Shown here: positions 6,031 through 54,453 of the stretch, in pieces | Layout of the letters: every line of letters starts with the position of its first letter | How positions within the stretch are numbered: the first letter of the stretch is position 1 | NCBI GenBank assembly: GCA_947628965.1 | Contig: CANRBV010000002.1 | Span: 16,247-80,246 of the forward strand | DNA: 64,000 bases | Origin: an uncultured Bacilli bacterium | Lineage (GTDB): Bacteria > Bacillota_I > Bacilli_A > RF39 > UBA660 | Direction of reading: 5' to 3' | Position numbers and translations under genes: made by a program | The notes under the pieces: model-generated | Told to the model about the DNA's origin: nothing | Seen by the model: the letters and a program-made list of their open reading frames with translations, nothing else | Database searches by the model: none

Positions 6031-6115
6031 CTATTAGTAGTATAGCACAGAAATTAAAAAAGGTGTAAATATTACCTCTTTTAGCCTTTTAATTCATATC
6101 TTCCAAATGTTCTTT

Positions 6116-6952
6116 TTACATTCCATATTTTTTATTAAATTTTTCAATTTGTGAAAGACGCTTTTCTTTTTTTAAAATAGGAGTATCTGTAATTTCTTTT
6201 TTAGCATTTATATCTGTATAACCAATATGTCCATTATGTTGACATGGATATATCGTAATAATTTCATTTGTAGGATTAAGAGCAATTATTCGAAAATAAT
6301 CTAAATTTTCACCTTCTTTACTCTTTCCACAAGCATCATATTTAAAAAAAGCATAATAACAAGAAATAGAACGATAAATAGCATGAGTTGTAGGGAGCAT
6401 TGGTTTTATTTGTTCCAAAACCTCATAAATAGGAAAATCTTCATTAAATTTAGAAATGTAAGGAATAGATGATGTATACAAATGTTTTTGAATATGTTTT
6501 ATAAAACGGTTTTCTTGATAATCTATAATTTGTTGCATCATATAACCATTATGTATAAAATTATTGTATTTTTTATCATGATTCCATTTTAAAATAGACA
6601 CTAAATCTATTTCATCTAGATGTTCTAAATCTATTTTTTCTAATAATTCATACGCCGTTTTAAAATCTTTTTCTATAAATTTTAATTTAATTAAAAGCGT
6701 GTGATAAAAATGGAATCCTACTCGATTAAAATTACTCATATTTTTCATATCTTCAAAAAAACGTTCCGCTTCTTCAAATTTGCCTATTTTTATTAATAAA
6801 TCTACATAATAAATATAAGCTATTGCATCTTCAGGATAATTTTGAAAATATAATTGAAATCCTTTTAATGCTTTTTCGTAATTTTCATTATTTAAATATT
6901 CTTTTATTTTTTCTAAATGTTCTTGACTATAATATTCTTTTCTTTGCTTCAC
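6116..6952 (-). CDS. TPR-like repeat hypothetical protein
   Basis: 278-aa helical-repeat-like ORF with AIAYIYYVDLL and KFEEAERFF motifs; function unknown. Confidence 0.45.
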   Translation of the reverse strand: MKQRKEYYSQEHLEKIKEYLNNENYEKALKGFQLYFQNYPEDAIAYIYYVDLLIKIGKFEEAERFFEDMKNMSNFNRVGFHFYHTLLIKLKFIEKDFKTAYELLEKIDLEHLDEIDLVSILKWNHDKKYNNFIHNGYMMQQIIDYQENRFIKHIQKHLYTSSIPYISKFNEDFPIYEVLEQIKPMLPTTHAIYRSISCYYAFFKYDACGKSKEGENLDYFRIIALNPTNEIITIYPCQHNGHIGYTDINAKKEITDTPILKKEKRLSQIEKFNKKYGM

Positions 6953-6972: not shown

Positions 6973-7416
6973 TTATTTTTCTTTAGAATCAAGCAAAATG
7001 GTTACGGGTCCATCGTTTATTATATTTACTTGCATATCACTGCCAAAAATTCCCGTTTGTACATTTATATACTTACTTAATTCTTCATTAAAAGCATCAT
7101 ATAATTTTATTGCCCTAGCACCATTCATAGCTTTTAAATAACTTGGTCTGTTTCCTTTTTTAGTATCTGCATATAAAGTAAATTGGCTAATGGAAAGAAT
7201 AGATCCCCCAACTTCTAAAATACTTTTATTCATAATACCTTTTTCATCGTTAAATATTCTTAAATTTAAAATTTTGCGAACTAAATATTCTATATCTTTT
7301 AAAGTATCACCTTCTGTAAAACAAACAAAGAGGACAAAGCCAAAGGGAATGGAAGAATAAAGTTTTTCTTGAATAGAGACATGACTCTCTTTGCTTCTTT
7401 GAATTAAAACACGCAT
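6973..7416 (-). CDS. dtd: D-aminoacyl-tRNA deacylase
   Basis: 147 aa with MRVLIQR N-terminus and SQFTLYAD motif; lies immediately downstream of relA as in Bacillus. Confidence 0.85.
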   Translation of the reverse strand: MRVLIQRSKESHVSIQEKLYSSIPFGFVLFVCFTEGDTLKDIEYLVRKILNLRIFNDEKGIMNKSILEVGGSILSISQFTLYADTKKGNRPSYLKAMNGARAIKLYDAFNEELSKYINVQTGIFGSDMQVNIINDGPVTILLDSKEK

Positions 7417-21268: not shown

Positions 21269-22615
21269 TTATTCTTCATTTTTTTTAAATATATCTTCTA
21301 AATCGTAAATACCGCGCGAAAGTATTTTTTTATATACTTTTGGAATATAATCATTTAATATAAATTCCCCATCTACTTCACCACTTTCAGTTACCCCTAT
21401 TTGTTTAAAACTAAATATTTCTTTTAATTTAATTCTTTCTTCTTCAAAGCCTACAATTTCTGAAATGGAAGTAATTTTTCTTTTTCCATCGTTCATTCTT
21501 TCAATGTTTACAACAATATCAATGGCACTTGTTATATATTCTCGAATTGCTTTAATAGGAATATCTAAGCCACTCATTAAAACCATTGTTTCTAAACGAT
21601 TTAGGGCATCATGAACACCATTGGCATGCAAAGTAGTTAACGATCCATCGTGACCAGTATTCATTGCTTGTAACATGTCAAATGCTTCTTTACCACGAAC
21701 TTCTCCAACAATTATACGATCAGGTCGCATACGAAGCGAATTTTTAACTAAATCGCGTATAGTAATTTCTCCATCCTTATCATAATTTGTTACTCTTGTT
21801 TCCAAAGAAATAACATTTTTTTGATGTAAACGTAATTCAGCAGCATCCTCTATTGTTATAATTCTTTCTTGTGAGTTAATAAAACCGCTTAAAATATTAA
21901 GTAGAGTTGTTTTCCCACTCCCTGTTCCTCCACAAACAATAATATTCAGTTTCCCTTTTACTGCAGCTTCTAAAAATCTTGCCATATAGGGAGTAAGGGT
22001 ACCTATGCGAATTAAATCTTCAATACTAACCATCGTTTCTTTAAATTTACGAATTGTAATTACAGGTCCTTTCGTAGAAAGTGGTGGAATAACAGCATTT
22101 ATTCTAGAACCATCTAAAAGCCTAGAATCTACCATAGGATTTGCTGCATCGATAGTTCTACCAAGAGGTTCAATTAAACGCTCTATCGTTCTAATTATAT
22201 GTTCATCATTTATAAATGAAACGCTTTCATCTTTAATCAAACGACCATCAATTTCAATATAAATCTCATTTGGACTATTCACCATAATTTCCGTAATATT
22301 TTTATCTTCTAATAATTCTGTAAGAGGTCCATAGCCATTGATTTCATTATCAATTAAATTAAATAAGTGACTTCTTTCTAAGTTAGTTAAATCTTGTCCT
22401 TCAATAGCGGACTCAATTTCTTCATTAATAAATTCATTTAATATTTTTCCTTCAGGAATTTCTTTATCAATTAAATTTTCAACAATCCTTGTTCTTAAAT
22501 CATCTAACAATTTCTTATCAGGAAAGATTTCATAATCGGTAATGCTTTCTATTTTAGGGGTTTTTCTTTCTATATTAAAAGCATCAATTAGGCTTGTTTT
22601 ACTCATGAACATCAC
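21269..22615 (-). CDS. tadA: CpaF/TadA family secretion ATPase
   Basis: Walker [17 protein letters not shown] and the conserved [12 protein letters not shown] motif. Confidence 0.85.
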
Positions 22616-35930: not shown

Positions 35931-36380
35931 CTTGCCTTTATTTTACCACGGATATTATAGATTAGTAAATGAAAGAAAAAATTATTGTATTTAAAAAAAG
36001 GAATTTTATGATAAATATTCCTTTTATTGGTAAAGATTTTATTACCCAAGATAATTTAGACTATTTATATTCATTAATAAATTATGTTCCTAGTGATTAT
36101 GATAAATGTGATTTAAAAAGTTTATTTATTGACTATAGTAATAACAATAAAATGTTTAGAAAGTGTTTTGCATATTAAAGAAAGAACAAATGCCGACTTG
36201 TTAATTGAAGATGAAGAAGCAAAAACAATTATGTCAATGTTTGAAAAATAAACATTAAAAATCTATAACAATTTTTTAACTAAAATAGGGTGTTTAACTA
36301 CACTCTTTTAAATTCATTTAAAATAACTTAAAAAAATAGAAAAAATAGCCAAAACCAATGTAGCTATTTTTTAATTTCTA

Positions 36381-37190
36381 TTAATATTTTAAGGATTCTA
36401 ATAAATTTCTAACTTCCTGTTCAGCTTCATCTAATGTTCTTTGATAAAAATATAAATTAAAATCATATCTTATATTATCATAATCTAATATAATTTGATA
36501 CCTTCTTAACTCATTATGATCTTGATAAGGCTTTATAATATAAGCCGTTGTATTTAAATTGTCTATAAAATATTCTTCTTCTCTGTATGCTCCTGAAATT
36601 TGATATCTTAACTTTTCTTTTTCTTCATCGGAAGCATTTTTAGTTATTAAAGTAAAACTCATTTGTAATTGTTTATCATGAACATCCGATTTTGTAAAAT
36701 TTTCAATACCAAACATAGCATAGGAAATTTTATTATTTATTTTATTTGTTACATATTGATATAAAACATCATTTTTATAATATTCACTTTTTAAAATTCT
36801 TATACCTAATAATTGTTCTAATTTACTAAAAGAATATAGTCTATCTTCAAAATCATCATTTTTTTCATTATAATTTTTAAATTCTTTTTCAGGAATATCA
36901 TTGTCCCCATTTAAGTTCACTACTGCATTTGTCTCTATTGTTGTAGAATATTTTTCTTCATGATGAGTTATTATGAACTCATTTATTATGTTTTTTATTT
37001 CTCCTGCATAAGTAACTCCTAAACTACAAATTATTATAAACAATATAAGTGTACAACATAGTGCATATTTAAAAAATATTTTATTCTTTTTTTTATTTAA
37101 AATAATATTTTGATAAACCTCATCGCTTCTTTCTTTAGAAAGACTAATTTTATTAAATGCTTCTTTATATTTTTTATTTAAATTTATCAT
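36381..37190 (-). CDS. putative anti-sigma factor, single-pass membrane protein
   Basis: ATGA overlap with the upstream ECF sigma gene; about 35-aa cytoplasmic N-terminus, one TM segment, extracytoplasmic domain. Confidence 0.4.
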   Translation of the reverse strand: MINLNKKYKEAFNKISLSKERSDEVYQNIILNKKKNKIFFKYALCCTLILFIIICSLGVTYAGEIKNIINEFIITHHEEKYSTTIETNAVVNLNGDNDIPEKEFKNYNEKNDDFEDRLYSFSKLEQLLGIRILKSEYYKNDVLYQYVTNKINNKISYAMFGIENFTKSDVHDKQLQMSFTLITKNASDEEKEKLRYQISGAYREEEYFIDNLNTTAYIIKPYQDHNELRRYQIILDYDNIRYDFNLYFYQRTLDEAEQEVRNLLESLKY

Positions 37191-37657
37191 TGATCATTCC
37201 CCATTTCTTTTTTTAATTTTTCTTTACCACGCTTTAATCTTAATTTAATAGCAGATTCAGACACTTTTAATAATTTAGATATTTCTTTAATTGAATATCC
37301 CTCGTAATAATATAAATAAAGAGAAATGCGATATTTTTTGGGTACATGAGAAATAAAATCAAATAAATCATCTCCCTTTGAATATTCTCCAAAGATATTG
37401 ATATCTTCTGGAACAAAACTATTCTTTTTCCAAAAAGAATTTAAATAATTTTTAGAATTATTTATTGCCACTCGAAATATCCACTTTTTTACCTCGATAT
37501 TAGTTTTATTAAATTTATTTATATTCTTATATAATTTTATAAATGTTTGTTGCAAAATATCTTCAGCATCGCTAAAATTTAAAGTATAACTATAAATTAA
37601 TCTAAAAACATCATCTTTATATTTTAAATAAATGTCATCAAATAATTTAGGCATCAC
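37187..37657 (-). CDS. ECF-type sigma-70 family sigma factor
   Basis: Region 2 (DAEDILQQTFIKLY) and region 4 HTH (YSIKEISKLLKVSESAIKLRLKRG); 156 aa. Confidence 0.75.
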   Translation of the reverse strand: MMPKLFDDIYLKYKDDVFRLIYSYTLNFSDAEDILQQTFIKLYKNINKFNKTNIEVKKWIFRVAINNSKNYLNSFWKKNSFVPEDINIFGEYSKGDDLFDFISHVPKKYRISLYLYYYEGYSIKEISKLLKVSESAIKLRLKRGKEKLKKEMGNDQ

Positions 37658-37710
37658 TCATTTATCTCCTCTCACTATATTAACAAATCAAATAGAGAAA
37701 AAGTTACAAT

Positions 37711-37757
37711 AAATAAAAAAACTGTTTGATAAATTTAAATTTTTCAAACAGTTTTAT
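37711..37757 (-). terminator. terminator after the secreted-paralog gene
   Basis: 10-bp stem AACTGTTTGA/TCAAACAGTT with a T-run on the minus strand. Confidence 0.45.
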
Positions 37758-37764
37758 TTATTTA

Positions 37765-38673
37765 TTATAAACTGACTTTTAAACCTGTCATATTATCAAA
37801 ATAAGAACCATACCCATTACTATAAACTAAAACTCCACCTAAACCAGAACTGCCAAAAGTATAGGATTGTGATGTTGCTAATGATATATTACTAACAGCA
37901 TGTTGATATGTTCCAACAATATAGCTACCTAATGAATCATGAGATGTAACATCATAAGTTAGCCAAAAATCAGTACCATCATCATGTAAATTCATTGAGA
38001 CTCCTATACCGTTACCTCCAAATTTTGTATTTGATCCGTTTAAATCATAATCAGTGAATCCAGCACTAGAATTTTGATGAGTTGTATAATATGTAATGGC
38101 ACTTTTCGAAATGCTGTTTTCAAAACGAAAGGCTAAAACATCGTAAGATTTCACTTTTGGTACGGTATGCCAAGTAACATCAAAATAAGCACTATATCTA
38201 TATGTATTTGAATTACTATATGCTATAAATATCGTTTTACTCTCTGTACTATATTCATCATCTTCAATATATCCTATAGTGACTGGCATATTAGAAACGT
38301 CTTGTAATTTACCGTTAATAACATGTAAATTTTTATTATATTTTACTGCTTCTGCTTCTTGTTCAGTAGCTTCTATTGTACTTACATTTTTAAGTAAACC
38401 ATACTTACTATATGTATAAGTTGTAATATATGATTGTTTTTTAGATGAAGTTTTTGCATTATTATCACCATATTTATTTACTTGAAGTTGCTCTAAATGA
38501 TTAATTGTATTTTCATTAAAATGCAATAAAAGTGTATTATATTGCTCTTGAGTAATGATTGCTCCATTATCATTTGTATAGCTTCCATCCTTATTAAGAA
38601 CCATAGCATTGACTGAATTTGTACATAATAAAATTGCAATTAAACCTGTTAATAAATAATAAATTTTTTTCAT
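37765..38673 (-). CDS. secreted protein, paralog A (signal peptide; Ser/Thr/Tyr-rich beta-type domain)
   Basis: Sec signal MKKIYYLLTGLIAILLCTNSVNA; shares the PxVKSYDV...YQHAxxxISL core with the 42255-42983 product. Confidence 0.55.
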   Translation of the reverse strand: MKKIYYLLTGLIAILLCTNSVNAMVLNKDGSYTNDNGAIITQEQYNTLLLHFNENTINHLEQLQVNKYGDNNAKTSSKKQSYITTYTYSKYGLLKNVSTIEATEQEAEAVKYNKNLHVINGKLQDVSNMPVTIGYIEDDEYSTESKTIFIAYSNSNTYRYSAYFDVTWHTVPKVKSYDVLAFRFENSISKSAITYYTTHQNSSAGFTDYDLNGSNTKFGGNGIGVSMNLHDDGTDFWLTYDVTSHDSLGSYIVGTYQHAVSNISLATSQSYTFGSSGLGGVLVYSNGYGSYFDNMTGLKVSL

Positions 38674-38908
38674 TTTTTCCTCTTTTCTATTTTTTTTATT
38701 TTTTATTTAAAAATAATTATTTGTAATAAATACAATGTTATATTTATTACAGAATAAGCAAATTTTTATATTAAAATTCTATTAGCTCATTAATATTAAA
38801 AAAATATTTATACTATTTGTCATAATATGACATTTTTTGATTTTGTATTATTATATCTTTAATTAAATAAATTTTCAGTGTCTAATGTAATGCATATGAC
38901 TTTTAATT

Positions 38909-39520
38909 TTAGTTAGAATCAACAACTTCACAATTATAATTTTCTAAAGAGCATTTAAAGTCAAAGCTTGTAGGTATGCTTGCGTCATATTTATAGGTCA
39001 AGCCACTAAAATAAAGAAAATTATCTTCTATTTTAACAATTTGTTCGATATAGAAACGATCATATGTCACATCATTTGGTATAGTGAAATGAAGACTTTT
39101 CTTTTCTATTTTTTCTTTATCTAGTACATATTCTGTAATCATTAAGAATTCAGGAGTTTCAACTTTATAAAATTTATTGTTATAAAAATAATTATAATTA
39201 CTTAAATTATTGTTATCATTAAAATCTGTACGAGCAGGATAAAACTCTGCTAGTAAAATATAATCTTGTTCATCTACTTGATAAAACAACCCCGATCTTG
39301 TTTCTGCTATATTTCGATCATTATCCATTGATATATCTGCTAAATAATAATTTTGAGTTTTCCCATTTTCATCCATATAGGCATAATGTACTTTATCATT
39401 CTCTTGTAAATTATAATGTTTATAACTAGAATAGTCTGTTTTTCTATTGTTACATCCACACATAAATAAGATTAACATTATTAATACTCCAAATTTTATT
39501 TTCCACATTTTAAATTTCAT
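38909..39520 (-). CDS. putative lipoprotein
   Basis: Signal peptide with LFMCGC lipobox-like site; 203 aa. Confidence 0.45.
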   Translation of the reverse strand: MKFKMWKIKFGVLIMLILFMCGCNNRKTDYSSYKHYNLQENDKVHYAYMDENGKTQNYYLADISMDNDRNIAETRSGLFYQVDEQDYILLAEFYPARTDFNDNNNLSNYNYFYNNKFYKVETPEFLMITEYVLDKEKIEKKSLHFTIPNDVTYDRFYIEQIVKIEDNFLYFSGLTYKYDASIPTSFDFKCSLENYNCEVVDSN

Positions 39521-39550
39521 TCCTTTATACGATTATAACATAAGTTTAAT

Positions 39551-41854
39551 TTAATACCAAGCCCTTTCTTTTCCAGCACTTGCATACTCTAGACCAACAC
39601 TTACAAAACAATTAAATTCTTCATAATCTTCTGAACTTCCTAATCTTCTTACTTCATCTACGAACATATTCCAAGGTCTTGATGCTCCTGGATTTACTTG
39701 ATTATTTCCATTTATTTTTATCTTATCACCAGGATATAACATTCCTTGATAATTAATACCATTAAAATATGGTACAGGTTTATTTATTGTAAAAATCATT
39801 GGGTCATATCCAGAACTAGTAATAGGATGAAAAATATAAGTATTATTACTAGGGTCGTAGTTTACTCTAGAAAAAAGTTCTTGATATTTAGGAATTTGAG
39901 CATAATTTTCTTCATATACATTTGAACTCAAAATTCCAGGGCCACCTTCAATATAACCTACTTTAACATCTAAACCATCATTATACATTACTTTATGTAT
40001 ATGATCACTTATACCAGGATTGGCTAAACCAAAAAATATATAAAAATCATTTTCTTTAATTTCACCAATTATATTACCATCAACTATATATCGTAATCCT
40101 GCACTCGTATCAGTTGCTTTTTTACTATCATAAACTGGAATAGATGAACCAGCTCGATTAATTATTATAAATGAATTTTGATTAGTATTTAAATTCTCAT
40201 ATGGTAAATCAGAATACTCTTGTGAAATTCCTTGATACCTTCCTGAAAAGCCATCTTTATCTATTTCAATAGATTCATTATTTGCAGATATAGTAGTTGT
40301 AGCAAATTGATCAAAAGCCCAATTTTCTGGAATAATAAAGCCCAAATTACCACTAAACCCAGTAGACATATCACTAACAAAACTGCTACAAGCATACCCA
40401 GCATCACAAACTTTAGTACAAACATTTCTTGTGCCATAAACACCTACGCGGTATTTTCCGCCACTTCTAGTTATAAATGTGCTATATAATGATTTAAAAT
40501 ATGGTAAAATATAATCAGTAATTTGTTGATCTGTTGCATCAAAATCAATTGCAAAATATACAATAACACCAAATTGTAAATACAATTTTTCTGTATATTC
40601 AACACCGTATTCACCATCTAAAGCACCATTATTTGTAGTAAAATACTCGATATTATTAGCTGCCCTTTGATGTATTGGAAATAATCTAATATTATTTTTA
40701 AATATAATTTTAATTTCTTCCAAAGTCATTGCTTTATCTAGACCTCCTGGAACATTAGATAAATATCTTCCAATGTATTTATAACCATTTTTAGTTAGGG
40801 CTGTCACATTTTCTGAATTAATATGAGTTATACAGTCACATGCTATTGCTGGTCTATTTACATTTCCACAACTAATTAAAAGCGATAACCAAGTATTAAA
40901 ATCTATAATTCCCGTTTCGGGAATAGCATATTGCTTTTGAAATTCAGTAATTACTTCGCTTTTTAAATCTACTTCTATTTCACCAGAACCAAATCCATTA
41001 AAATATAATGCTATATTAGCTAAATTTCTAAATCTAATTATATTTTCACTAGAATATTGTTCTCCATTATAATTTAAACCATAAGTTTGCCCATTCATTT
41101 GATAAGAACCATTATATGGAATATTCGGTAAACTTTTTTGTGTTGCAGGACCGCAATTTCCATTTGCAACACTTATAGGCATTTCTTCTTCTGCTTGTAT
41201 TGCATAAATTAATGCTTGATTCGTTCTTCTACCATATACTCCATCGCATGGTCTTAATCCAATATAATCTTCATAATATCTGTTCAAATATCTTTGCATA
41301 TTTATAATATTTTTAGTTCTTTCTGAAGTATTATAAGAAGTAAAATAATCCATAGATAATAAAGCTTTCATAATATTTAATGTAACAACAGATGTTGTAT
41401 CTGATATTCCAGCATCTAATTTTAACTTTTTAATGGCATTCCCAACTCCAGACAAAAATCTACAAGTAATCTGTCCCCCTGCACCATAATCATATCCTTT
41501 ACAACTTAAACTTCCTTGAATAATTCCATATATATTATACATAGTTTCAGTTGATAATTGATTGTCAAATCCATGTTGCGGAACTGTATCAGGATCTAAT
41601 TGTTCTTCAATTCCATTAGGAAAATTTTTACGAAATGCTGCTTCGGTACTAGGTCCGAAATTATCTGCAGGATTTTCTATTCCTAAACAAATTTGGAATG
41701 CTCTAATAAATCCATATATTGTTGCCCATCCAGTTTTTCCATTTTCAGGAACTTCTTCATAACCCTTCATTCCCCTAAATGTATTATTTAACCACTCTTG
41801 TGCATTATAAACATATGGATCTCCATCTCTAGTATTCGCTTTTGCCATTTTCAT
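39551..41854 (-). CDS. large cell-wall-targeting protein: three PG_binding_1-like repeats plus a DUF1906 (Rv2525c-like glycoside-hydrolase-fold) domain plus an unknown C-terminal domain; no signal peptide
   Basis: DNFGPSTEAAFRKNF, DGVYGRRTNQALIYAIQ and GNCGPATQKSL PG-binding repeats; GYKYIGRYLS...LTLEEIKIIFKNNIRLFPIHQ is DUF1906-like. Confidence 0.55.
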   Translation of the reverse strand: MKMAKANTRDGDPYVYNAQEWLNNTFRGMKGYEEVPENGKTGWATIYGFIRAFQICLGIENPADNFGPSTEAAFRKNFPNGIEEQLDPDTVPQHGFDNQLSTETMYNIYGIIQGSLSCKGYDYGAGGQITCRFLSGVGNAIKKLKLDAGISDTTSVVTLNIMKALLSMDYFTSYNTSERTKNIINMQRYLNRYYEDYIGLRPCDGVYGRRTNQALIYAIQAEEEMPISVANGNCGPATQKSLPNIPYNGSYQMNGQTYGLNYNGEQYSSENIIRFRNLANIALYFNGFGSGEIEVDLKSEVITEFQKQYAIPETGIIDFNTWLSLLISCGNVNRPAIACDCITHINSENVTALTKNGYKYIGRYLSNVPGGLDKAMTLEEIKIIFKNNIRLFPIHQRAANNIEYFTTNNGALDGEYGVEYTEKLYLQFGVIVYFAIDFDATDQQITDYILPYFKSLYSTFITRSGGKYRVGVYGTRNVCTKVCDAGYACSSFVSDMSTGFSGNLGFIIPENWAFDQFATTTISANNESIEIDKDGFSGRYQGISQEYSDLPYENLNTNQNSFIIINRAGSSIPVYDSKKATDTSAGLRYIVDGNIIGEIKENDFYIFFGLANPGISDHIHKVMYNDGLDVKVGYIEGGPGILSSNVYEENYAQIPKYQELFSRVNYDPSNNTYIFHPITSSGYDPMIFTINKPVPYFNGINYQGMLYPGDKIKINGNNQVNPGASRPWNMFVDEVRRLGSSEDYEEFNCFVSVGLEYASAGKERAWY

Positions 41855-42220
41855 ATTACCTCCATTTTGGCATTTAATTAATTTGATATAATTTTATACA
41901 AGGATGGTCATCACTTTCATATTAAATTTATATATGTTAATAACTACACTAGAATTGTTAGACTATTACCCATCCTTGTTGTAGCTATTTATAAATATTA
42001 ATATGAGAACATTAAATTCTAAAAATCATTTGTAAATTTTTTTGCTACCTCCTTTCAATTATTAAACTTACTAACTAGATTTAACAAATGCTTACAATAT
42101 ATTGTCTCTAAAAAAAATACAAAATATTATAAGATTTTCAAATATGTCATAATTTCCTCTTGTCAACCAAAATTTATCATTATTTTTGTGAATAATAAAG
42201 GACTTGTTAAGCTACATTTA

Positions 42221-42248
42221 AAAAGAAAAAAATGAGCTTATTAAGCTC
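42221..42248 (-). terminator. terminator (GAGCTTAATAAGCTC hairpin plus T-run)
   Basis: Near-identical hairpin to the one at 43035-43049. Confidence 0.45.
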
Positions 42249-42254
42249 AAAAAA

Positions 42255-42983
42255 TTAAATAGCAATATCTACACCACCCATTTGATCATAGTAACTTTTT
42301 ACTGAACTATCAAATAAAAATACATTACCATAGCCTGTCAAATCAATAGAATATTTTTTACTATTATTTAAAGAAATGCTTTTTTTAGCGTGTTGGTAAC
42401 TTGCATAAACTCTTCCACTACCTGAAACTTTAAATGTTTGAGTAATAGATAAATTTGATCCTGCCGATGGAATTTTTACAGAAACTCCAAAACCATTATT
42501 ATCATATTGTGCTTCAACATAACTAGTAGTAGTTTCGGATGTAATGACTTTGGTGTTGGGTATATTATCTAGTGTAACGTTGCTTAAAAAAGCACCCATA
42601 ACATCGTAGCTTTTTACAGTAGGTTCTCCAAACCAATTTGCGACAACTCCAACTAAAACATAAGATGAAAAAACAGATTTAGTAATTTTTAAAGATTTTG
42701 CAGATGTAGTATGTTCAGTTCCAGTAAGTTGATATCCATTAGGTTGGTAATTTCTAAAATATTTAGTTTCAATTTGATTACTTATACCATCTTTAAGAAT
42801 ATCATTATAATCCTCGGCTGTCATACTTTTTTGATATCCATCAAAAAACATTTTAGTAACAAAATCATATTCTTGTTTAGTAAATTGCACACCATTATCA
42901 TTAGTATAATATATTTCCGATGCATTTACATTAACGCTAATAAATGATAATAATAATATCAATATAAAAAATATTTTTTTCAT
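42255..42983 (-). CDS. secreted protein, paralog B
   Basis: Signal peptide MKKIFFILILLLSFISVNVNA; shares conserved core blocks with the 37765-38673 product. Confidence 0.55.
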   Translation of the reverse strand: MKKIFFILILLLSFISVNVNASEIYYTNDNGVQFTKQEYDFVTKMFFDGYQKSMTAEDYNDILKDGISNQIETKYFRNYQPNGYQLTGTEHTTSAKSLKITKSVFSSYVLVGVVANWFGEPTVKSYDVMGAFLSNVTLDNIPNTKVITSETTTSYVEAQYDNNGFGVSVKIPSAGSNLSITQTFKVSGSGRVYASYQHAKKSISLNNSKKYSIDLTGYGNVFLFDSSVKSYYDQMGGVDIAI

Positions 42984-43025
42984 TGGTACCTCCTTTCTGT
43001 TTTACATTAAACAATAATTTTAGTG

Positions 43026-43049
43026 AAATAAAAAGAGCCTATTAAGCTC
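43026..43049 (-). terminator. terminator (GAGCTTAATAGGCTC hairpin plus T-run) overlapping the stop codon
   Basis: Differs by 1 nt from the hairpin at 42234-42248. Confidence 0.4.
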
Positions 43050-44163
43050 ATTTTATTAATAATTCGTATGTATTGTGCCAAAAATCATCAATTTTTTCTT
43101 TTTCATTTTGACAAGATCCAAAAGTACATTTAATACTATTAAGATAAGTAAAAGAAAATATAGCTTCATTATCATTATTATATTGAGTATAAGTTAATTC
43201 CTTATTTGAAAGATTTAAACTCCATTCTTCAATAATTCTTAAGTTTATTCTTGTTAAATAAAGATTATTTAATAGCTGCATATAACTATATGTTAATACA
43301 CTGTTTTTATCTTTATATTCAAATATATAATTATCATTTTGTAAAGTAAATTTTTCTTTAATCTTTTCAACCAAAATACTTGAATCAGTATTTTTTACTT
43401 CATTTACATCAAAATTATTATTTACTACTTCTTTATAATTAATTTTAAATAAATTATCATTAATATAATCTTCCGTTAACCATAATTTTATATTATCAGT
43501 ATTACCATTATTATAATTTGCTTCAAGATATAAATTTGCAATTATATAATTAATTTTAGTGAAATCAAAATATGAATCATATCCATAATAATCAATAAAA
43601 TTAATATAGTTATTATCACTAGAATATATAACAACTTTACCATTATTTTCATCTTGGTAGTATAAAGTTAAATGTTCTATGGAATCATCACTGACAGTAT
43701 CATCAATTCTAAAATAAATTTTATTTTTAGTTTCGACGAAAATACCATCAAAATATTTAATTGAATCTTTTATTCCAGTTATAGTATAAACTTTAATAGA
43801 TTTGTATGACATTATAAAGTAATATATTAAAAAAAGTATTAATATTGCAAAAATTGTCAATAATAATATCGATATTATTTTCTTACGTTTATTATTGCTA
43901 TCATATAATTTCAAAGTAATTTTATTAACTATTGAATTCTCCTCTTTTTTAGACAATCTAGAGCCAACTAATATCTCATTTATAGTTACATCAAATATGT
44001 CACTTAATCTTAACAAAGTTGAAGAGTCAGGAATAGTTACTCCTCGTTCCCATTTACTTACAGCACCTCTACCAATTGGTATTAAATCTGCTAGTTGTTC
44101 TTGTGTTAATTCTTTTTCTTTTCTAAGTTCGTGAATAAATTTTCCAATATGTTCAGTATTCAT
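43048..44163 (-). CDS. membrane-anchored XRE-family transcriptional regulator with a large extracytoplasmic domain
   Basis: N-terminal HTH (LTQEQLADLIPIGRGAVSKWERG), a TM segment around residues 96-118, and a ~250-aa C-terminal domain. Confidence 0.65.
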   Translation of the reverse strand: MNTEHIGKFIHELRKEKELTQEQLADLIPIGRGAVSKWERGVTIPDSSTLLRLSDIFDVTINEILVGSRLSKKEENSIVNKITLKLYDSNNKRKKIISILLLTIFAILILFLIYYFIMSYKSIKVYTITGIKDSIKYFDGIFVETKNKIYFRIDDTVSDDSIEHLTLYYQDENNGKVVIYSSDNNYINFIDYYGYDSYFDFTKINYIIANLYLEANYNNGNTDNIKLWLTEDYINDNLFKINYKEVVNNNFDVNEVKNTDSSILVEKIKEKFTLQNDNYIFEYKDKNSVLTYSYMQLLNNLYLTRINLRIIEEWSLNLSNKELTYTQYNNDNEAIFSFTYLNSIKCTFGSCQNEKEKIDDFWHNTYELLIK

Positions 44164-44306
44164 AATATTACCTCAATAATAGTAAATATTTTAAAAAAAT
44201 TATAACATTTAAAATATTATCTCAATATGCAATAATTTTACCTAAAAAATATTTATAAAATTCTAATTAAATCCGATATTAAATTTCAAATATATTTTTG
44301 ATATTT

Positions 44307-44639
44307 TTAAACCTTTAATTTTTCTTTCTGTAAAAGCATTTCATTTTTTTTCCAATCTTCAAAATAAAAATTTGCATCTTGTCCATATACCATTATAGCC
44401 ATAATTAATACTTTAGATGAAAATTCATCTCTATCATTTTTAGCTTCTATTCTTCTCAAAGATTGTGGTTGTAAATCTAATAATTGTGCAGCGTGGTCTA
44501 ATTCCATATTGGCTAGTTTTCTTGCAATACGAATATTTTGACATATATTATGCTTTAATTTAAAAAGTGTATAATTATATTTATTTTTATCATAAACTTC
44601 CATTGAATTTAATAAATAATTAAAATCCTCTTTATCCAT
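44307..44639 (-). CDS. XRE-like HTH protein
   Basis: Start ATG 44637-44639 with GGTGA RBS; HTH-like NIRIARKLANMELDHAAQLLDLQPQSLRRIE. Confidence 0.45.
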   Translation of the reverse strand: MDKEDFNYLLNSMEVYDKNKYNYTLFKLKHNICQNIRIARKLANMELDHAAQLLDLQPQSLRRIEAKNDRDEFSSKVLIMAIMVYGQDANFYFEDWKKNEMLLQKEKLKV

Positions 44640-44883
44640 TATTTCACCAACTTTGCTACAAAACAATTTTATATTAATTATGATTTTTATTTGTAGCATT
44701 TACTGGCAATTTTTTATATAGTAACCTATAACTACTTAAATATACAACAATGTTACTTTTAATTAAATTTTTGATGTCTTCTAATTTAGGTTCACATCAT
44801 ATTTGCTACATTAGTTTTTTATTATTAAATGTTAAAAAAAGGAATTACTTACATAAAACTTAATTCAAATTTTTATGATTTCA

Positions 44884-49936: not shown

Positions 49937-50092
49937 CTAGCAATAATTTTTATTATAAATTCTTCGTATAGAAGAACCGACTGTACGACCCAATTCCAGT
50001 ACGGTAGTAATTAATCTAGCGACAGAATTTAATAAATTTGAAGTAATGGCTCCTCCTTTTAATTCATATAATTCAATTTCTTTTAATTTCAT
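49937..50092 (-). CDS. double-glycine-leader peptide (51 aa), candidate two-peptide bacteriocin component
   Basis: Absent from the track because it is under 60 aa. Translation MKLKEIELYELKGG/AITSNLLNSVARLITTVLELGRTVGSSIRRIYNKNYC; RBS AAAGGAA 8 nt upstream. Confidence 0.55.
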   Translation of the reverse strand: MKLKEIELYELKGGAITSNLLNSVARLITTVLELGRTVGSSIRRIYNKNYC

Positions 50093-50103
50093 ATTATTCC
50101 TTT

Positions 50104-50241
50104 CTAATTACATTTTAAAGGGCGTAGAATTCCATCAACTACTCCTGCTACAAAAACACCAACAGCTGTTAAAATACCAAGAAGTGTATAGCTAATTCCC
50201 CCTCCTACAATTTGATTTAATTCTTGCTCTTTTAAATACAT
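50104..50241 (-). CDS. double-glycine-leader peptide (45 aa) with GxxxG-rich hydrophobic core, candidate two-peptide bacteriocin component
   Basis: Absent from the track. Translation MYLKEQELNQIVGG/GISYTLLGILTAVGVFVAGVVDGILRPLKCN; RBS AAAGGTGAG. Confidence 0.6.
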   Translation of the reverse strand: MYLKEQELNQIVGGGISYTLLGILTAVGVFVAGVVDGILRPLKCN

Positions 50242-50248
50242 ATCCTAC

Positions 50249-50674
50249 TCACCTTTCTATTATTGATTTTGCTATTTTTTTAAGCAATCTTTCTTTGTTT
50301 TTATAAATTTGCATTGTAACAAATTCATTTTGATTCCCCTGAAATTTTTTTACTTTTAAAGAAATATTTTGTAAGGCATTATTATTACTATCCAAAACAG
50401 GATCTGAAAATGAAACGGTTTCTATTTCATAAGTTTTATGATTAATTTTAATAAATTCATAAATAAAATCTGTAGTGGGATAAAAAAAGTTAATAGTGCA
50501 TTCTTCTTGGCAAAAAATTTGTCCTTTTACTTCTAAAACATCATAAGCTTCTTTTTTGTAAGCATAAAATAAAAGTATTAGAAAAAGGCAAAAAGGAATT
50601 AACCAAAAAAAGCTATATTTATTTTTATCCTTATTTAAATAACTTGGTAAATTGTATTTTAAATATTCTGACAT
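50249..50674 (-). CDS. single-TM protein, candidate bacteriocin immunity or short accessory protein
   Basis: 141 aa with one TM segment; overlaps the ABC transporter stop by 16 nt. Confidence 0.35.
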   Translation of the reverse strand: MSEYLKYNLPSYLNKDKNKYSFFWLIPFCLFLILLFYAYKKEAYDVLEVKGQIFCQEECTINFFYPTTDFIYEFIKINHKTYEIETVSFSDPVLDSNNNALQNISLKVKKFQGNQNEFVTMQIYKNKERLLKKIAKSIIER

Positions 50675-52725
50675 AAAAGCTTGCTAAAATCATAAACTTC
50701 ATCAAAATATTGTTCCTGTTTTTTATGGCTTACATAAATAATCGTTTTATCTTTAAAATATTCCTTTAATTTTTTTATAATACTTATTTCTAATTCATCA
50801 TTTACTTCACTTAATGCTTCATCTAAAATAAGAATTTGAAAGTTGTTAAGTAAAGCCCTTGCTAAGATAATTCGTTGTCTTTCACCACCAGAAATATTAG
50901 TAGAATCTTTCATAAGAAACGTTTCATAACGTAATGGTTTTTTAGAAACAATACTCTCTATTTCACATATTTGTAAAATATCTAAATATTTACTTTCTAT
51001 TATCTCACGATTTAACAAAATATTGTTTTTAATGGTATCTTGAAATAAATTTTCTTTTTGACTTACATAAGTAATATTTTTGCGAATAGTTTCTAAGCTA
51101 TAGTCGTTAAGACTCACTTCTCCAATCTTAATATTATTATTTTTTACTTCAATTAAACGACTTAAAATTTGACATAAGGTACTTTTTCCACATCCGCTTG
51201 CTCCCTTAAATAAGACACAACTTTTTTCTTTAATTTCCAAAGAAAAATCTTGAAATAATTTAGAAAAATCATTATAAGAAAAATTTAAATGTTCTATTTT
51301 AACATTACCATTTTTAAAATCTTGTAGACCGATTTTGTCTTGCTCTTCTTCAATAGTATAAAAATCATTTAATTTTTGAATATTTACTTTTACATAATTG
51401 TAGCTTGGAATTAAATTAATAATTGATTTAAATGGGGTGAAGAAGAAGGAAATTAAACTTTCAAATGTTATTAAATTAATTAAACTACAACGATTGTTTA
51501 ACATTTCATATAAACCTATTGAAATAAGACAAAAATCAAGTAATTGCTCTAAAAAAGTTGCTAAGCTACTTGTTTGCATGACTTTCTTGTTTAAATCATA
51601 AGATTGATTTAAAAATTGAACTAAATGCATTTCAATTTTTTGAAAAAACAATTGCAAAATATTTAGATTTTTAAGAGAAATAATTGATTCTACATTTTCT
51701 AAGACGGTCGATTGAAACTGCACTTCACTATCATTTACTTGCAAAGCTTTCTTATACATTATTTTGCCAGAAATCATTCCAAAAACAATATAACAAAAAA
51801 CAAAAAAACAAAGAATAAAAAATAGTTTTTTATGAATGTGCCATAGAATGATGCCTACACTAAATGATAAAATAGAATCTAAACCTATCGTGACAATAAT
51901 TTCGGAAAATACTTCTTTCATATTTTCTAATTCTTTTATACGAACCATAATTTCACCAGTTGTTCTATCTTTCATAAAATAATGAGGAAGTAAAAATAAA
52001 TGATGCAAAAAATTGTAATACAATTGTCCATCTAAATTTTTATTTAAATAAGTTTTAAAATGATTGCGAAAAAACATAAACAAATACTTTAGAACATGTA
52101 AAGCTAAAAAAATAAGCATTACACACAAAAGAACTTTTTTATCTTCGCTATCTTGAACAAAATTTAAGCCAACTTTAAAATAAAAGCCAGTTAAGATTGT
52201 TATAAAAGTCAAAAACCCTGTTAAGAAAAAAAGTTTTAATAAGTTTTTCTTTTCATTTTTAAAGAACTCTATGATCATTTCCAACAAATGATTTTGATTC
52301 ACTACTTTTGGAAGAGGATTTTTAGGATACAAGCACAAGATATTACCAGTCCAAATAGCTTCAAAATCATTTTTAGTCATTTTTATATTCCCTTTAGCTG
52401 GATCCATTATTTCTATGTCTAAAGAATTTATTTTATAGATTACTAGGAAATGTGTGTAATGATTGATTTCGACATGTGCAATAATGGGTAATAAAGTTCC
52501 TTCTAGATCTTTTAAACTTTCTAATTTCATTCCATAGGCATCAAATCCATAATTTCTAGCTGTTTTAATAAGATGATAAGCCGTTGTCCCCTCTATAGAC
52601 GTTTGCGTATCTATCCGTAATATTTCAAGTGGTACATATCCGCCATAATATTTTATAATAGAAAGTAAAGAACAGATTCCACAATCTTTTAAATCCTGTT
52701 GTCTAACTACAATATTTTTTTTCAT
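50659..52725 (-). CDS. peptidase-C39-domain bacteriocin/peptide ABC exporter (ComA/LagD type)
   Basis: N-terminal C39 Cys motif QQDLKDCGICSL, 6 TM segments, Walker A GASGCGKST, signature ISGGERQRI. Start ATG 52723-52725 with AGGAGGTG RBS; the track's GTG start reads through the RBS. Confidence 0.85.
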   Translation of the reverse strand: MKKNIVVRQQDLKDCGICSLLSIIKYYGGYVPLEILRIDTQTSIEGTTAYHLIKTARNYGFDAYGMKLESLKDLEGTLLPIIAHVEINHYTHFLVIYKINSLDIEIMDPAKGNIKMTKNDFEAIWTGNILCLYPKNPLPKVVNQNHLLEMIIEFFKNEKKNLLKLFFLTGFLTFITILTGFYFKVGLNFVQDSEDKKVLLCVMLIFLALHVLKYLFMFFRNHFKTYLNKNLDGQLYYNFLHHLFLLPHYFMKDRTTGEIMVRIKELENMKEVFSEIIVTIGLDSILSFSVGIILWHIHKKLFFILCFFVFCYIVFGMISGKIMYKKALQVNDSEVQFQSTVLENVESIISLKNLNILQLFFQKIEMHLVQFLNQSYDLNKKVMQTSSLATFLEQLLDFCLISIGLYEMLNNRCSLINLITFESLISFFFTPFKSIINLIPSYNYVKVNIQKLNDFYTIEEEQDKIGLQDFKNGNVKIEHLNFSYNDFSKLFQDFSLEIKEKSCVLFKGASGCGKSTLCQILSRLIEVKNNNIKIGEVSLNDYSLETIRKNITYVSQKENLFQDTIKNNILLNREIIESKYLDILQICEIESIVSKKPLRYETFLMKDSTNISGGERQRIILARALLNNFQILILDEALSEVNDELEISIIKKLKEYFKDKTIIYVSHKKQEQYFDEVYDFSKLLCQNI

Positions 52726-52730
52726 TTTTT

Positions 52731-52780
52731 TCACCTCCTACTTATATATATACACTCTAAATTTGCAATTTCCTTTTTTT
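52731..52780 (-). promoter_or_regulatory. conserved 50-bp promoter/operator-like element, copy A (contains dyad AAATT-TGC-AATTT, TATATATA and RBS)
   Basis: 46/50 identical (ungapped) to 61364-61413, which lies upstream of comEA. Confidence 0.4.
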
Positions 52781-52815: not shown

Positions 52816-53016
52816 TTATTTTTCATAAAAAATCGTATCGGGAGTACAACCCAGTATATTAGCAATATCTATGGCAATTTCATAATAAAGTTTTCTTTCT
52901 TTATGTTCCAATTGCCAATAAAAAGATTTGCTAATTTTTAACATAGTGGCCATATCTTGATAACTTAAGTTTTTTTGCATTCTTAATTTTTTTAATTTTT
53001 TATAACACTTTTTCAT
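52816..53016 (-). CDS. small XRE-family HTH regulator (about 66 aa)
   Basis: HTH LSYQDMATMLKISKSFYWQLE; ATG 53014-53016 has GAGGGA RBS. Confidence 0.55.
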   Translation of the reverse strand: MKKCYKKLKKLRMQKNLSYQDMATMLKISKSFYWQLEHKERKLYYEIAIDIANILGCTPDTIFYEK

Positions 53017-53118
53017 TTTATCCCTCATTTTTTAAATTATAGCACATTTTTATTACAATAACCCACCAATTTACGAATTTAAACTATTTTTTAGAGAAAA
53101 TTAGTATTAGGTGATTGT

Positions 53119-53565
53119 ATGTTAGATAAATTAAAGGAATTAAGAGAATACGAAGGTCTAACACAAAGAGAAGTTGCAGAAAAATTACATGTTAAAAGAA
53201 GTACATATGCTGGATGGGAAAATGGTAAAGATATTATTCCTTTAGAAAGATTAAATGCGCTTGCCAATCTTTATCACACTAGCTTGGATTATTTAATCGG
53301 CAATTCGCCAACCAAAGAGCAAGTTTTAGAGATTCAAAAGATTAATCAACAAGAATTTTCCCAAAATTTAAAAAAATTTCGAAAAGAAAAACATCTTACT
53401 CAAGAAAAATTAGCTGAAAAATTAAAAACAAGCCAATCTAATATTCATAAATATGAGAATAATAAGAGTTTAATTACAACCACATATGCCTTAGAATTCA
53501 CAAAACAGTACCATTATTCTTTAGATAAACTATTAGGAAGAAAAAAAACAACTAGCACAAAATAG
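53119..53565 (+). CDS. tandem-HTH XRE-family regulator
   Basis: Two HTH_3-like modules: LTQREVAEKLHVKRSTYAGWE and LTQEKLAEKLKTSQSNIHKYE. Confidence 0.65.
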   Translation: MLDKLKELREYEGLTQREVAEKLHVKRSTYAGWENGKDIIPLERLNALANLYHTSLDYLIGNSPTKEQVLEIQKINQQEFSQNLKKFRKEKHLTQEKLAEKLKTSQSNIHKYENNKSLITTTYALEFTKQYHYSLDKLLGRKKTTSTK

Positions 53566-53573
53566 TTGTTTTT

Positions 53574-53816
53574 TTAAAACATTTTATCAATATTTTTTGG
53601 AACTTTGTCATTAACAATTGTATTAATAATTTTATCTTCTTGTTCTTTCGTAACATTTTTACCTGTCATTAGACTTAATGTTGATATAACTTCTCTTAAC
53701 GTATTTTCATCTTTCATATTTCCTTGTTGAAGTTTTTTAGCTAAATTAACAATTGTATTTTTATCAACTTTAGTCTTTTTTTCGACTTTTTTAAAAAAGT
53801 CGTCTTTTAATTCCAC
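53574..53816 (-). CDS. small helical hypothetical protein (80 aa)
   Basis: ORF between XRE modules; no family recognised. Confidence 0.35.
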   Translation of the reverse strand: MELKDDFFKKVEKKTKVDKNTIVNLAKKLQQGNMKDENTLREVISTLSLMTGKNVTKEQEDKIINTIVNDKVPKNIDKMF

Positions 53817-53862
53817 TTTATCACCTACTAAGTATTATATGACAAAATTCTAATGGGTTTCT

Positions 53863-54075
53863 CTAATTTTTAAACTCTTCATAAAAAATATCATCAGGTT
53901 TTAAATGAAAAATAGAAGCAATTTCTTTAGCCATATCATAAGAAAGACGCCTATTTTTATGTTCAATTTGCCAATAATAAGCTTTGCTAATATTTAAAGA
54001 TTTTGCCATATCTTCACAACTTAAATTTCTTTTTTCACGTAAATTTTTTAATTTCTTTATATAGGTTGACTTCAT
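53863..54075 (-). CDS. small XRE-family HTH regulator (paralog of the 52816-53016 product)
   Basis: LSCEDMAKSLNISKAYYWQIEHKNRRL. Confidence 0.55.
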   Translation of the reverse strand: MKSTYIKKLKNLREKRNLSCEDMAKSLNISKAYYWQIEHKNRRLSYDMAKEIASIFHLKPDDIFYEEFKN

Positions 54076-54195
54076 AACTCCTCCGAATGATATTAATCAT
54101 ACCCTATATTTTAATAATTGTCAATTTTTGTGCAGTTCTAGTGTAGTAGACTTGTAAAATATAAAAATCTATTATTTATATTAAGGATGTGAAGT

Positions 54196-54453
54196 ATGAA
54201 AATAGAAACAATTATCGGAAATAATTTAAAATATTTTCGATATCAATCTAAATTATCTCAAGAAAAGTTTTATGGACAATTTGGAATGAATTATCGCTAT
54301 TTAGCAAGCATCGAACGTGGAAAAATTAACATGTCTGTAGAATTTTTAGACAACTTAGCTAAAGTATTAAAAGTGGATATTCGTGATTTTTTCAATCCCG
54401 ATAAAACCAGATGGGTATTTAAAAAACGTATTGATGGAAAAGAGAATAAATAA
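54196..54453 (+). CDS. XRE-family HTH regulator
   Basis: LSQEKFYGQFGMNYRYLASIERGK. Confidence 0.55.
   Translation: MKIETIIGNNLKYFRYQSKLSQEKFYGQFGMNYRYLASIERGKINMSVEFLDNLAKVLKVDIRDFFNPDKTRWVFKKRIDGKENK

Follow-up and report, generated by a model that had tools for sequence, protein, structure and literature searches.

A candidate BacA-type effector-immunity cassette, accessory and mobile, in an uncultured gut member of the Bacilli

What purpose is served by a compact gene island that combines a peptidoglycan-binding, glycoside-hydrolase-like protein lacking a signal peptide with a lipoprotein, two secreted paralogues and two sets of regulators spanning the membrane? We addressed this question for a 64-kb stretch of DNA (hereafter, the window; contig CANRBV010000002.1, positions 16,247 to 80,246) from an uncultured gut member of the Bacilli, with a G+C content of ~27%. 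Coordinates below are window positions unless another contig is named. The original prediction, made from the window sequence alone, had described eight open reading frames (ORFs) as a regulated module for cell-wall remodelling or for a secreted effector rather than as a prophage lysis cassette. All eight ORFs were recovered at the same coordinates, on the minus strand throughout. Between the two functions proposed, that of a secreted effector module fits better, given homology to the bacteriocin protein BacA, polymorphic C-termini across the family and co-varying membrane partners. On balance, and with reservations, we favour the view that the region is a transferable BacA-type effector-immunity cassette, comprising a wall-targeting effector, a protective lipoprotein and two envelope-spanning regulators.

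The central product, a protein of 767 amino acids (aa; termed the effector in the following), carries an Rv2525c-like DUF1906 domain (PF08924), in line with the glycoside-hydrolase fold predicted earlier, preceded by peptidoglycan-binding sequences. Three peptidoglycan-binding repeats had been proposed; residues 7-72 and 175-240 were indeed found to be mutual repeats by profile comparison (96% probability), whereas Pfam reports a single such stretch and two further peptidoglycan-binding-like segments were judged by eye only. Sequence comparison places the effector in the BacA/YbfG/YkuG family, a membership that the original prediction had missed. Residues 12-542 share 38% identity (E 1e-98) with the BacA-position protein of the Enterococcus faecalis plasmid pBEE99 (only BacL2 is named in that record, and the BacL1, BacA and BacI assignments follow from gene order), and identity to the Ybfg_C-bearing YbfG homologue of Bacillus glycinifermentans is 37-41%. 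For the Bac41 system to which BacA belongs, it is reported that BacL1 and BacA are secreted effectors, both of them required for lysis, that BacI confers immunity and that BacL2 is a positive regulator (bioRxiv 10.1101/2020.11.20.391417; PMC13532309). Five acidic residues of the barrel (D340, D437, D439, D495 and D515) do not vary across an alignment of 25 family members, and profiles of the effector weakly match the solved Rv2525c structure and 1sfs. A sequence search for solved relatives returned none for the full 767-aa protein, the lipoprotein or either secreted paralogue. In the reading favoured here, the effector is a wall-binding and probably wall-damaging protein.

The C-terminus of the effector had been considered unknown. 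Modelling of residues 545-767 with 62 homologues yielded a confident structure (pLDDT 93.5) made up of SH3b-like beta domains, for which binding to, or targeting of, the cell wall is predicted, so that the effector would represent a BacA-like module joined to its own wall-targeting domains. Among 1.84 billion proteins, the whole C-terminal module is represented just 15 times, mostly as the C-terminus of a ~750-aa protein or as a fragment, and it gave one weak match to viral models. This type of domain also exists on its own: in the related contig L009, a 184-aa ORF (6055-6609) corresponds to the window-type C-terminal domain alone, with 39% identity to effector residues 570-767, and lies at the position where another related contig, L007, has a full effector and lipoprotein. 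This ORF may have been left behind by a deletion, or it may be an orphan module; free-standing copies were likewise seen in L010, L029 and L055.

Homologues of the effector numbered 1091, and a genome scan located relatives in 350 species of Bacilli, Clostridia and Actinomycetota, the nearest named ones being metagenome-assembled genomes (MAGs) such as Candidatus Ventrenecus, Coprosoma and Caccenecus. When ORFs were called in ~90 loci and then clustered, the N-terminal 545 aa proved to be conserved, and the C-termini fell into 15 clusters ranging from 120 to ~1560 aa in length. One cluster, from Clostridium species, consists of DUF6531 followed by 22 RHS repeats (with a tip that is HNH-nuclease-like by eye only), and other types include Big_2 with dockerin, CARDB with Flg_new, the helical PF27189, and Ybfg_C with a Gly/Ala-rich hydrophobic tail. 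Bacillus YbfG is recognised by its Ybfg_C domain; YkuG is an annotation on a plasmid homologue. The gene 3′ of the effector gene encodes an N-terminal hydrophobic anchor in 44 of 54 non-redundant loci. Among these 54 loci, a neighbour family was shared by 42 of 272 locus pairs with the same C-terminal type and by none of 1159 pairs with different types, a pattern reached in 0 of 2000 permutations; the statistic ignores shared ancestry of the loci, and we regard the test as supportive rather than conclusive. A constant N-terminus, a variable C-terminus and a co-varying neighbour are the layout of polymorphic effector-immunity systems.

In the window, the co-varying neighbour is the lipoprotein, whose gene begins 31 bp after that of the effector. 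Its assignment held up, as the lipobox (LFMCGC) is conserved in homologues, as are two C-terminal cysteines. Genes that follow other effectors of the same C-terminal type encode homologues of the lipoprotein (E 4e-21 or better), and no homologue was found other than beside effectors with this SH3b-like type. By this association, the lipoprotein is probably the cognate immunity or neutralising partner of the effector. Elsewhere in the family the following genes differ: in B. glycinifermentans, three tandem paralogous genes for two-transmembrane proteins come after the YbfG homologue (L063, 12283-13787). FtsX-type ABC transporters also recur beside family genes (L007, L009, L016, L019; L095, 9529-12435) and might have a role in immunity or export.

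The cassette is accessory and horizontally mobile. It lies, as predicted, between a YgjP-like side and lemA, the flanks being YgjP-like/SpoU/RimM/TrmD at one end and DUF2207/LemA at the opposite end. Since a metagenome scan with the YgjP-like protein gave six short loci, site comparisons rest on exact-protein look-ups. Contigs from other samples with an identical YgjP-like protein (L001, L103-L105) carry the same cassette. In the two closest distinct relatives, with YgjP proteins 80-82% identical (L107 and L108; GCA_947632355.1 and GCA_947632625.1), a different, unrecognised gene lies directly upstream of ygjP; no cassette gene was found in either contig, both of which end within that upstream gene, ~1.6-1.7 kb before ygjP. 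The cassette is also missing from the site in more distant relatives: DUF2207 immediately adjoins YgjP in one (L097; YgjP 60% identical), and another with the same YgjP-SpoU-RimM-TrmD order (L095; 40%) has other cargo there, namely an XRE-type transmembrane regulator, a homologue of secreted protein A, a 153-aa protein and an FtsX-type ABC transporter.

In another lineage (L003-L006 and L013), a cassette collinear with that of the window was found, with protein identities of 72% for the effector, 60% for the sigma factor, 51-52% for secreted protein B (L003, L013), 40% for secreted protein A, 39-40% for the anti-sigma-like protein (L003, L013), 36% for the lipoprotein and 33% for the membrane-tethered XRE regulator. 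Selection on the cassette as a whole is implied, since none of the eight ORFs is disrupted and gene order persists between proteins that are 33-72% identical. The collinear version is followed by genes for a protein with sigma region 4, an HTH_17 excisionase-like protein and two tyrosine integrases, past which uvrB is located, and an effector-lipoprotein version devoid of secreted protein B and the sigma/anti-sigma pair lies just downstream of a VirB4-like transfer ATPase gene in L014. Taken together, the two contexts assign the cassette to the cargo position in Tn916-like conjugative elements. Relatives of the effector were further found on 564 plasmid records, 384 of them from Enterococcus and including non-mobilizable plasmids of 5-9 kb. 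At the island ends themselves, neither an integrase nor a small-XRE remnant was detected, and direct repeats did not exceed AT-rich chance matches. The description of the island as AT-rich requires qualification: its G+C content of 24.7% (27.3% for the rest of the window) falls within the lowest 1% of 8.3-kb windows, yet this is a difference of only 2.5 points, ~2 standard deviations below the mean, and G+C at third codon positions is like that of the flanks. The features of the cassette are collected in Table 1.

Table 1. Features of the cassette in the 64-kb window, listed from the 5′ end of the coding (minus) strand
Feature	Position	Strand	Basis or remark
130-aa protein with weak helix-turn-helix-like stretch	44307..44699	-	HTH_25 E 0.015, sub-threshold
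Membrane-tethered XRE-family one-component regulator, 371 aa	43048..44163	-	HTH_3 E 4.9e-14
Terminator-like hairpin 3′ of the XRE regulator gene	43035..43049	-	
Secreted protein A, 242 aa	42255..42983	-	Signal peptide, small helical domain, Ig-like beta-sandwich
Terminator-like hairpin 3′ of the secreted protein A gene	42233..42249	-	
400-bp untranslated region 5′ of the effector gene	41855..42254	-	
Effector residues 1-335, peptidoglycan-binding-type repeats	40850..41854	-	PG_binding_1 E 2.7e-10
Effector residues 352-534, Rv2525c-like (DUF1906) TIM-barrel glycoside-hydrolase-like domain	40253..40801	-	PF08924 E 1.4e-38
Effector residues 545-767, lineage-restricted SH3b-like C-terminal module	39554..40222	-	Structure model
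Lipoprotein, 203 aa	38909..39520	-	Lipobox; 31 bp 3′ of the effector gene
Secreted protein B, 302 aa, paralogue of protein A	37765..38673	-	BLASTP
Candidate autoregulatory ECF-type promoter, TGTAAC-N17-TGTTAA	37680..37708	-	Conserved motif
ECF-type sigma factor	37187..37657	-	Sigma70_r2, Sigma70_r4_2, TIGR02937
Single-pass membrane protein, putative anti-sigma factor, 269 aa	36381..37190	-	Coupled to the ECF gene

If the region encodes an effector, the question arises of how its product leaves the cell. The absence of a signal peptide, noted in the original prediction, was confirmed: the N-terminus contains no hydrophobic stretch, the ATG is preceded by GGAGG, and an in-frame stop lies 13 codons upstream with no start codon in between. 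Family members from clostridia have Sec signal peptides and a linker ahead of the first binding repeat, which argues that the family module works outside the cell. No signal peptide was found in family members from Bacilli MAGs, enterococci or actinobacteria. Of the 47 signal-less members, 9 have a Phage_holin_4_1 homologue encoded no more than 10 kb away, as compared to 0 of 19 signal-bearing ones, and such a homologue sits inside the Bac41 operon. A tblastn search of the whole 64-kb window returned no homologue of Phage_holin_4_1, M23 peptidase, BacL1, BacL2 or BacI, and the gaps of the cassette contain no small membrane ORF. Elsewhere in the window lies a T2SSE-type secretion ATPase gene with its neighbours (21269-22615); in L108, the homologue of this gene is flanked by Flp, TadE and ParA-like genes, indicating a Tad/Flp-type pilus locus in the lineage.

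The remaining genes of the cassette are regulatory or encode secreted proteins. The predicted sigma/anti-sigma pair of extracytoplasmic function (ECF) type was substantiated for the sigma factor, which has regions 2 and 4 (Sigma70_r2 E 2.6e-13; Sigma70_r4_2 E 1.6e-13; TIGR02937 E 4.9e-23) and no region 3. Its stop codon overlaps the start of the gene for the 269-aa single-pass membrane protein, and the two are thereby translationally coupled. This putative anti-sigma factor has one transmembrane segment (~residues 38-60), an N-in topology and an extracytoplasmic domain of ~205 aa, and gave no Pfam match even at an E-value of 1. The 371-aa regulator was recovered with the expected architecture of an N-terminal XRE helix-turn-helix (residues 10-64) and a single hydrophobic segment (~96-118), followed by an extracytoplasmic domain of ~250 aa without a known family. 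A sensor domain common to the two regulators was considered, as related outside domains would have suggested paralogous receptor-ligand pairs with the secreted paralogues, and was dismissed: the outside domains showed no similarity to each other. The 130-aa protein, listed originally as a small XRE protein, does not reach significance as such; it has no homologue in related cassettes and is present only in this strain's version.

Secreted proteins A and B are paralogues, as had been noticed (BLASTP, 29% identity over 168 aa, E 2e-12), and both have cleavable signal peptides ending in VNA. The Ig-like beta-sandwich of protein A resembles domains of Gram-positive pilins and adhesins. Together with the membrane-tethered XRE regulator, protein A forms a self-standing two-gene unit that is seen in many loci, be it upstream of two effector C-terminal types, beside an ABC transporter, or alone. 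The trio of protein B, sigma factor and anti-sigma protein accompanies an effector only in the window, L003-L006 and L013; in L034, the ECF/anti-sigma pair stands alone on the opposite strand.

Upstream of the ECF gene, the motif TGTAAC-N17-TGTnnA is conserved in three orthologous cassettes, and its occurrence ahead of this gene is the sole intergenic match on the correct strand in the window. This suggests that the sigma factor autoregulates from this candidate promoter; the motif does not indicate other targets. The effector and lipoprotein genes probably form an operon of their own behind a 400-bp leader region, which presumably holds the promoter. A structured leader RNA in this region found no support (fold z -1.57, not significant; no Rfam match). 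Related cassettes carry a gene for a 72-aa XRE protein in the region upstream of the effector gene, of which no remnant was found in the window. The two hairpins in Table 1 are nearly identical (GAGCTTAATA[AG]GCTC, then a T-run). Comparison of the intergenic regions of the window revealed no shared regulatory element. In two related cassettes, L003 (~4007-4065 and 7194-7253) and L013, a near-identical element of ~45 nt (AATTCGCCTTG[TC]AAGTAGTGTAATTAATTGTCGATTATTG) precedes both the effector gene and the gene of secreted protein B, suggesting that these genes are co-regulated there; the window has no equivalent. A role in anti-phage defence was also considered, and PADLOC models gave generic helix-turn-helix matches only.

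Around the cassette, a small ORF of 56-69 aa (35969-36178, plus strand) lies between it and the YgjP-like gene. It was called by gene callers in conspecific contigs, and neither a transmembrane segment nor a family was detected in its product. At ~5 kb from the cassette is a class II bacteriocin locus (49937-52734, minus strand, with 52816-54453), which encodes two double-glycine-leader peptides (50104-50241, MYLKEQELNQIVGG...; 49937-50092, MKLKEIELYELKGG...), a 141-aa accessory protein and a Peptidase_C39 ABC exporter (50659-52734), and is adjoined by a cluster of small XRE-type genes. With this locus so near, two different antagonism systems would share one neighbourhood. The window further contains homologues of FtsW/RodA and VanY and an undecaprenyl-phosphate translocase-like gene; from these genes, we conclude that the source organism makes peptidoglycan.

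Taken as an effector-immunity cassette, the region would operate as follows. The two envelope-spanning regulators, i.e. the membrane-tethered XRE protein and the ECF sigma/anti-sigma pair, each adjoining one of the two paralogous Ig-like secreted proteins, would decide when the effector-lipoprotein pair is made. The signal-less effector would exit by a Sec-independent route encoded outside the cassette and attach, via its binding domains, to the wall of related competitor cells, whose glycan the TIM-barrel domain would damage or loosen. On the producer, the lipoprotein would neutralise the effector at the outer face of the membrane. What the data show is the family and anatomy of the effector, the mobility of the cassette, the polymorphism with its co-varying neighbour, and the lack of both a signal peptide and a holin; killing, immunity, catalysis, export and the wiring of regulators to genes are inferences from these.

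Several observations weigh against such a scheme. The effector C-terminus resembles a binding module and not the toxin looked for in a polymorphic-toxin system, and a binding-type C-terminus, as modelled here, would leave no evident toxin for the lipoprotein to neutralise. The cassette encodes no export route, and no defined secretion route (Sec or type VII) was found for the effector. Bac41 requires the second enzyme, BacL1, of which the 64-kb window holds no homologue, and peptidoglycan-degrading activity of BacA itself was not detected (bioRxiv 10.1101/2020.11.20.391417). In the homologous ybfGFE operon of B. subtilis, the sole phenotype is beta-lactam sensitivity (lysis) of a ybfF mutant, which would fit a housekeeping function in the wall as well. 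Finally, the co-variation statistic leaves shared ancestry of the loci uncorrected.

The undetected activity of BacA and the ybfF phenotype keep alive the main competitor, which we consider rather unlikely, namely that the cassette serves endogenous wall remodelling. In that case, the 767-aa protein would attack the wall of the very cell that makes it, in the manner of an autolysin, with the lipoprotein regulating or anchoring it and the ECF and XRE proteins tying expression to envelope stress. Sigma/anti-sigma pairs and membrane-tethered regulators are indeed typical envelope-stress devices, the modelled C-terminus is a wall-binding fold as in autolysins, no enzymatic activity of BacA has been detected, and ybfF, the gene after ybfG, protects B. 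subtilis against beta-lactam-induced lysis, with no report of antagonism in that organism. From a housekeeping autolysin, however, one would expect a signal peptide and a conserved gene neighbourhood, whereas the cassette is an accessory one that moves with conjugative elements and plasmids; the closest characterised homologue belongs to a bacteriocin; and the C-termini of the family are polymorphic, RHS toxins included, with co-varying neighbour genes. If YbfF were a BacI-like immunity protein against YbfG, this would account for the lysis of the ybfF mutant, which may then depend on ybfG; the preprint sections covered here describe single deletions only and no ybfG ybfF double mutant.

With a slim chance only, the cassette could be the decayed lysis module of a prophage or mobile element, that is, a signal-less endolysin that lost its holin and no longer forms a functional unit. 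Apart from the missing signal peptide, matches to phage-derived profiles point in this direction: the prophage-derived PHROG 15213, of unknown function, matches effector residues 13-549 (E 2e-145), an endolysin PHROG matches the barrel (E 3.6e-13), the DUF1906 protein of one Alicyclobacillus phage is annotated as an endolysin, and relatives of the effector adjoin Phage_holin_4_1 and M23/CW_7/LysM genes. Against this, relatives were found in just 2 of 50,697 phage records (the full N-terminal module in one of the two), as opposed to the 564 plasmid records; the 64-kb window contains no phage structural, integrase or holin genes; and the ORFs are intact and keep their order in another lineage. 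The original judgement that the island contains no holin or phage genes and is no prophage lysis cassette thus stands.

That the protein is a mating-associated hydrolase opening peptidoglycan for the conjugation channel of its carrier element is very improbable, for although relatives adjoin type IV secretion genes (VirB4-like, TraG/VirD4-like, PrgI) in L011, L014 and L016, the L011 element already has a CHAP hydrolase in its transfer module (in L014, a hydrolase gene in the matching position was not identified by Pfam), the family also resides on the small non-mobilizable plasmids, the window has no transfer genes, and a channel-associated hydrolase would not be expected to combine C-terminal polymorphism with a co-varying partner.

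Beyond the effector-immunity reading that we favour, a wider proposal can be made, tentatively and with doubts of our own. The BacA/YbfG N-terminal module may be a general Gram-positive platform for breaching walls and delivering interchangeable C-terminal warheads or targeting domains, with signal-less lineages exiting by a holin-type or other Sec-independent route; the two pairs of Ig-like secreted protein and regulator (XRE-type and ECF/anti-sigma) would then constitute an outside-in circuit that fires effector and lipoprotein only upon sensing wall damage or competitors.

The BacA-type family is both widespread and little studied: hundreds of plasmids from enterococci and lactobacilli carry its members, as do ~350 species across the Bacillota and Actinomycetota. 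The kind of system is already known, as Bac41, the YbfG/YkuG proteins and TelC-bearing relatives have been described. New here are the SH3b-like C-terminal module fused to a BacA-like enzyme, the lipoprotein partner, the lack of both a BacL1-type co-effector and a holin, and the pairing with two sensor-regulator units, each beside an Ig-like secreted paralogue. The cassette is a simpler natural variant of its kind, shows the family behaving as a polymorphic effector with matching membrane partners, and links the BacA-type module to dedicated envelope-spanning regulators. It also clearly poses a general question, namely how wall-active proteins without signal peptides exit Gram-positive cells.

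Of the known systems, Bac41 of E. faecalis (bacL1, bacL2, bacA and bacI; plasmids pYI14 and pBEE99) comes closest. On pBEE99, the operon encodes, in this order, a BacL1-like peptidoglycan amidohydrolase, a BacL2 family protein, a phage holin family protein, a secreted 175-aa protein, BacA and a 180-aa polytopic membrane protein. The BacA-position protein (726 aa, annotated as 'glycoside hydrolase domain-containing protein') begins without a signal peptide, as does the effector; the two are homologous over the peptidoglycan-binding and Rv2525c-like module, both are found on mobile DNA, and in both cases a gene for a small membrane protein lies directly downstream and one for a secreted protein directly upstream. 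A relationship between the secreted 175-aa protein and secreted proteins A or B was looked for and not found. In contrast to Bac41, the window has no BacL1 endopeptidase partner, BacL2 regulator or holin, its regulators being the ECF sigma/anti-sigma pair and the membrane-tethered XRE protein. No resemblance was found between the lipoprotein and the polytopic protein of 180 aa that occupies the BacI position, and the C-terminus of the effector is SH3b-like, whereas that of BacA is of the Ybfg_C type with a hydrophobic tail. SH3 repeats are carried by BacL1 in Bac41 (bioRxiv 10.1101/2020.11.20.391417); in the cassette, the BacA-like protein itself bears SH3b-like domains as a fusion.

YbfG (ybfGFE operon) and YkuG of B. 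subtilis are of the same family and share the N-terminal architecture, and genes for membrane proteins follow the B. glycinifermentans homologue; unlike the cassette, they are chromosomal in Bacillus and have another C-terminal type. The same N-terminal module recurs in the TelC systems described with the Lipocone superfamily, where peptidoglycan-binding domains, an Rv2525c-like barrel and a TelC toxin make up a probable cell-wall conflict system, read by its authors as aimed at the walls of rival bacteria (10.1101/2025.01.14.632903). Rapidly diverging neighbours are encoded there, including a secreted Ig-domain protein or a small membrane protein (10.1101/2025.01.14.632903). The effector differs in having no TelC-like domain; the PF27189 (YkzU) C-terminus of its sister clade was examined for likeness to TelC, which sequence did not confirm and for which no PDB sequence match was obtained.

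With polymorphic toxins such as WapA and RHS proteins and their immunity genes, the family has in common a constant N-terminus, a variable C-terminus and a co-varying small neighbour, and some of its members are true RHS fusions; the C-terminal domain in the window differs in looking like a binding domain, and no dedicated secretion system was identified for it. Modular bacteriolysins and endolysins (lysostaphin, enterolysin A, the phiSM101 endolysin), lastly, likewise combine an enzyme-like domain with SH3b-type wall-targeting domains. The effector departs from them in its catalytic family, an Rv2525c-like barrel of putative activity, in its extra peptidoglycan-binding repeats and in the rarity of its family in phages, and immunity would here come from a lipoprotein rather than from a modification of the wall.

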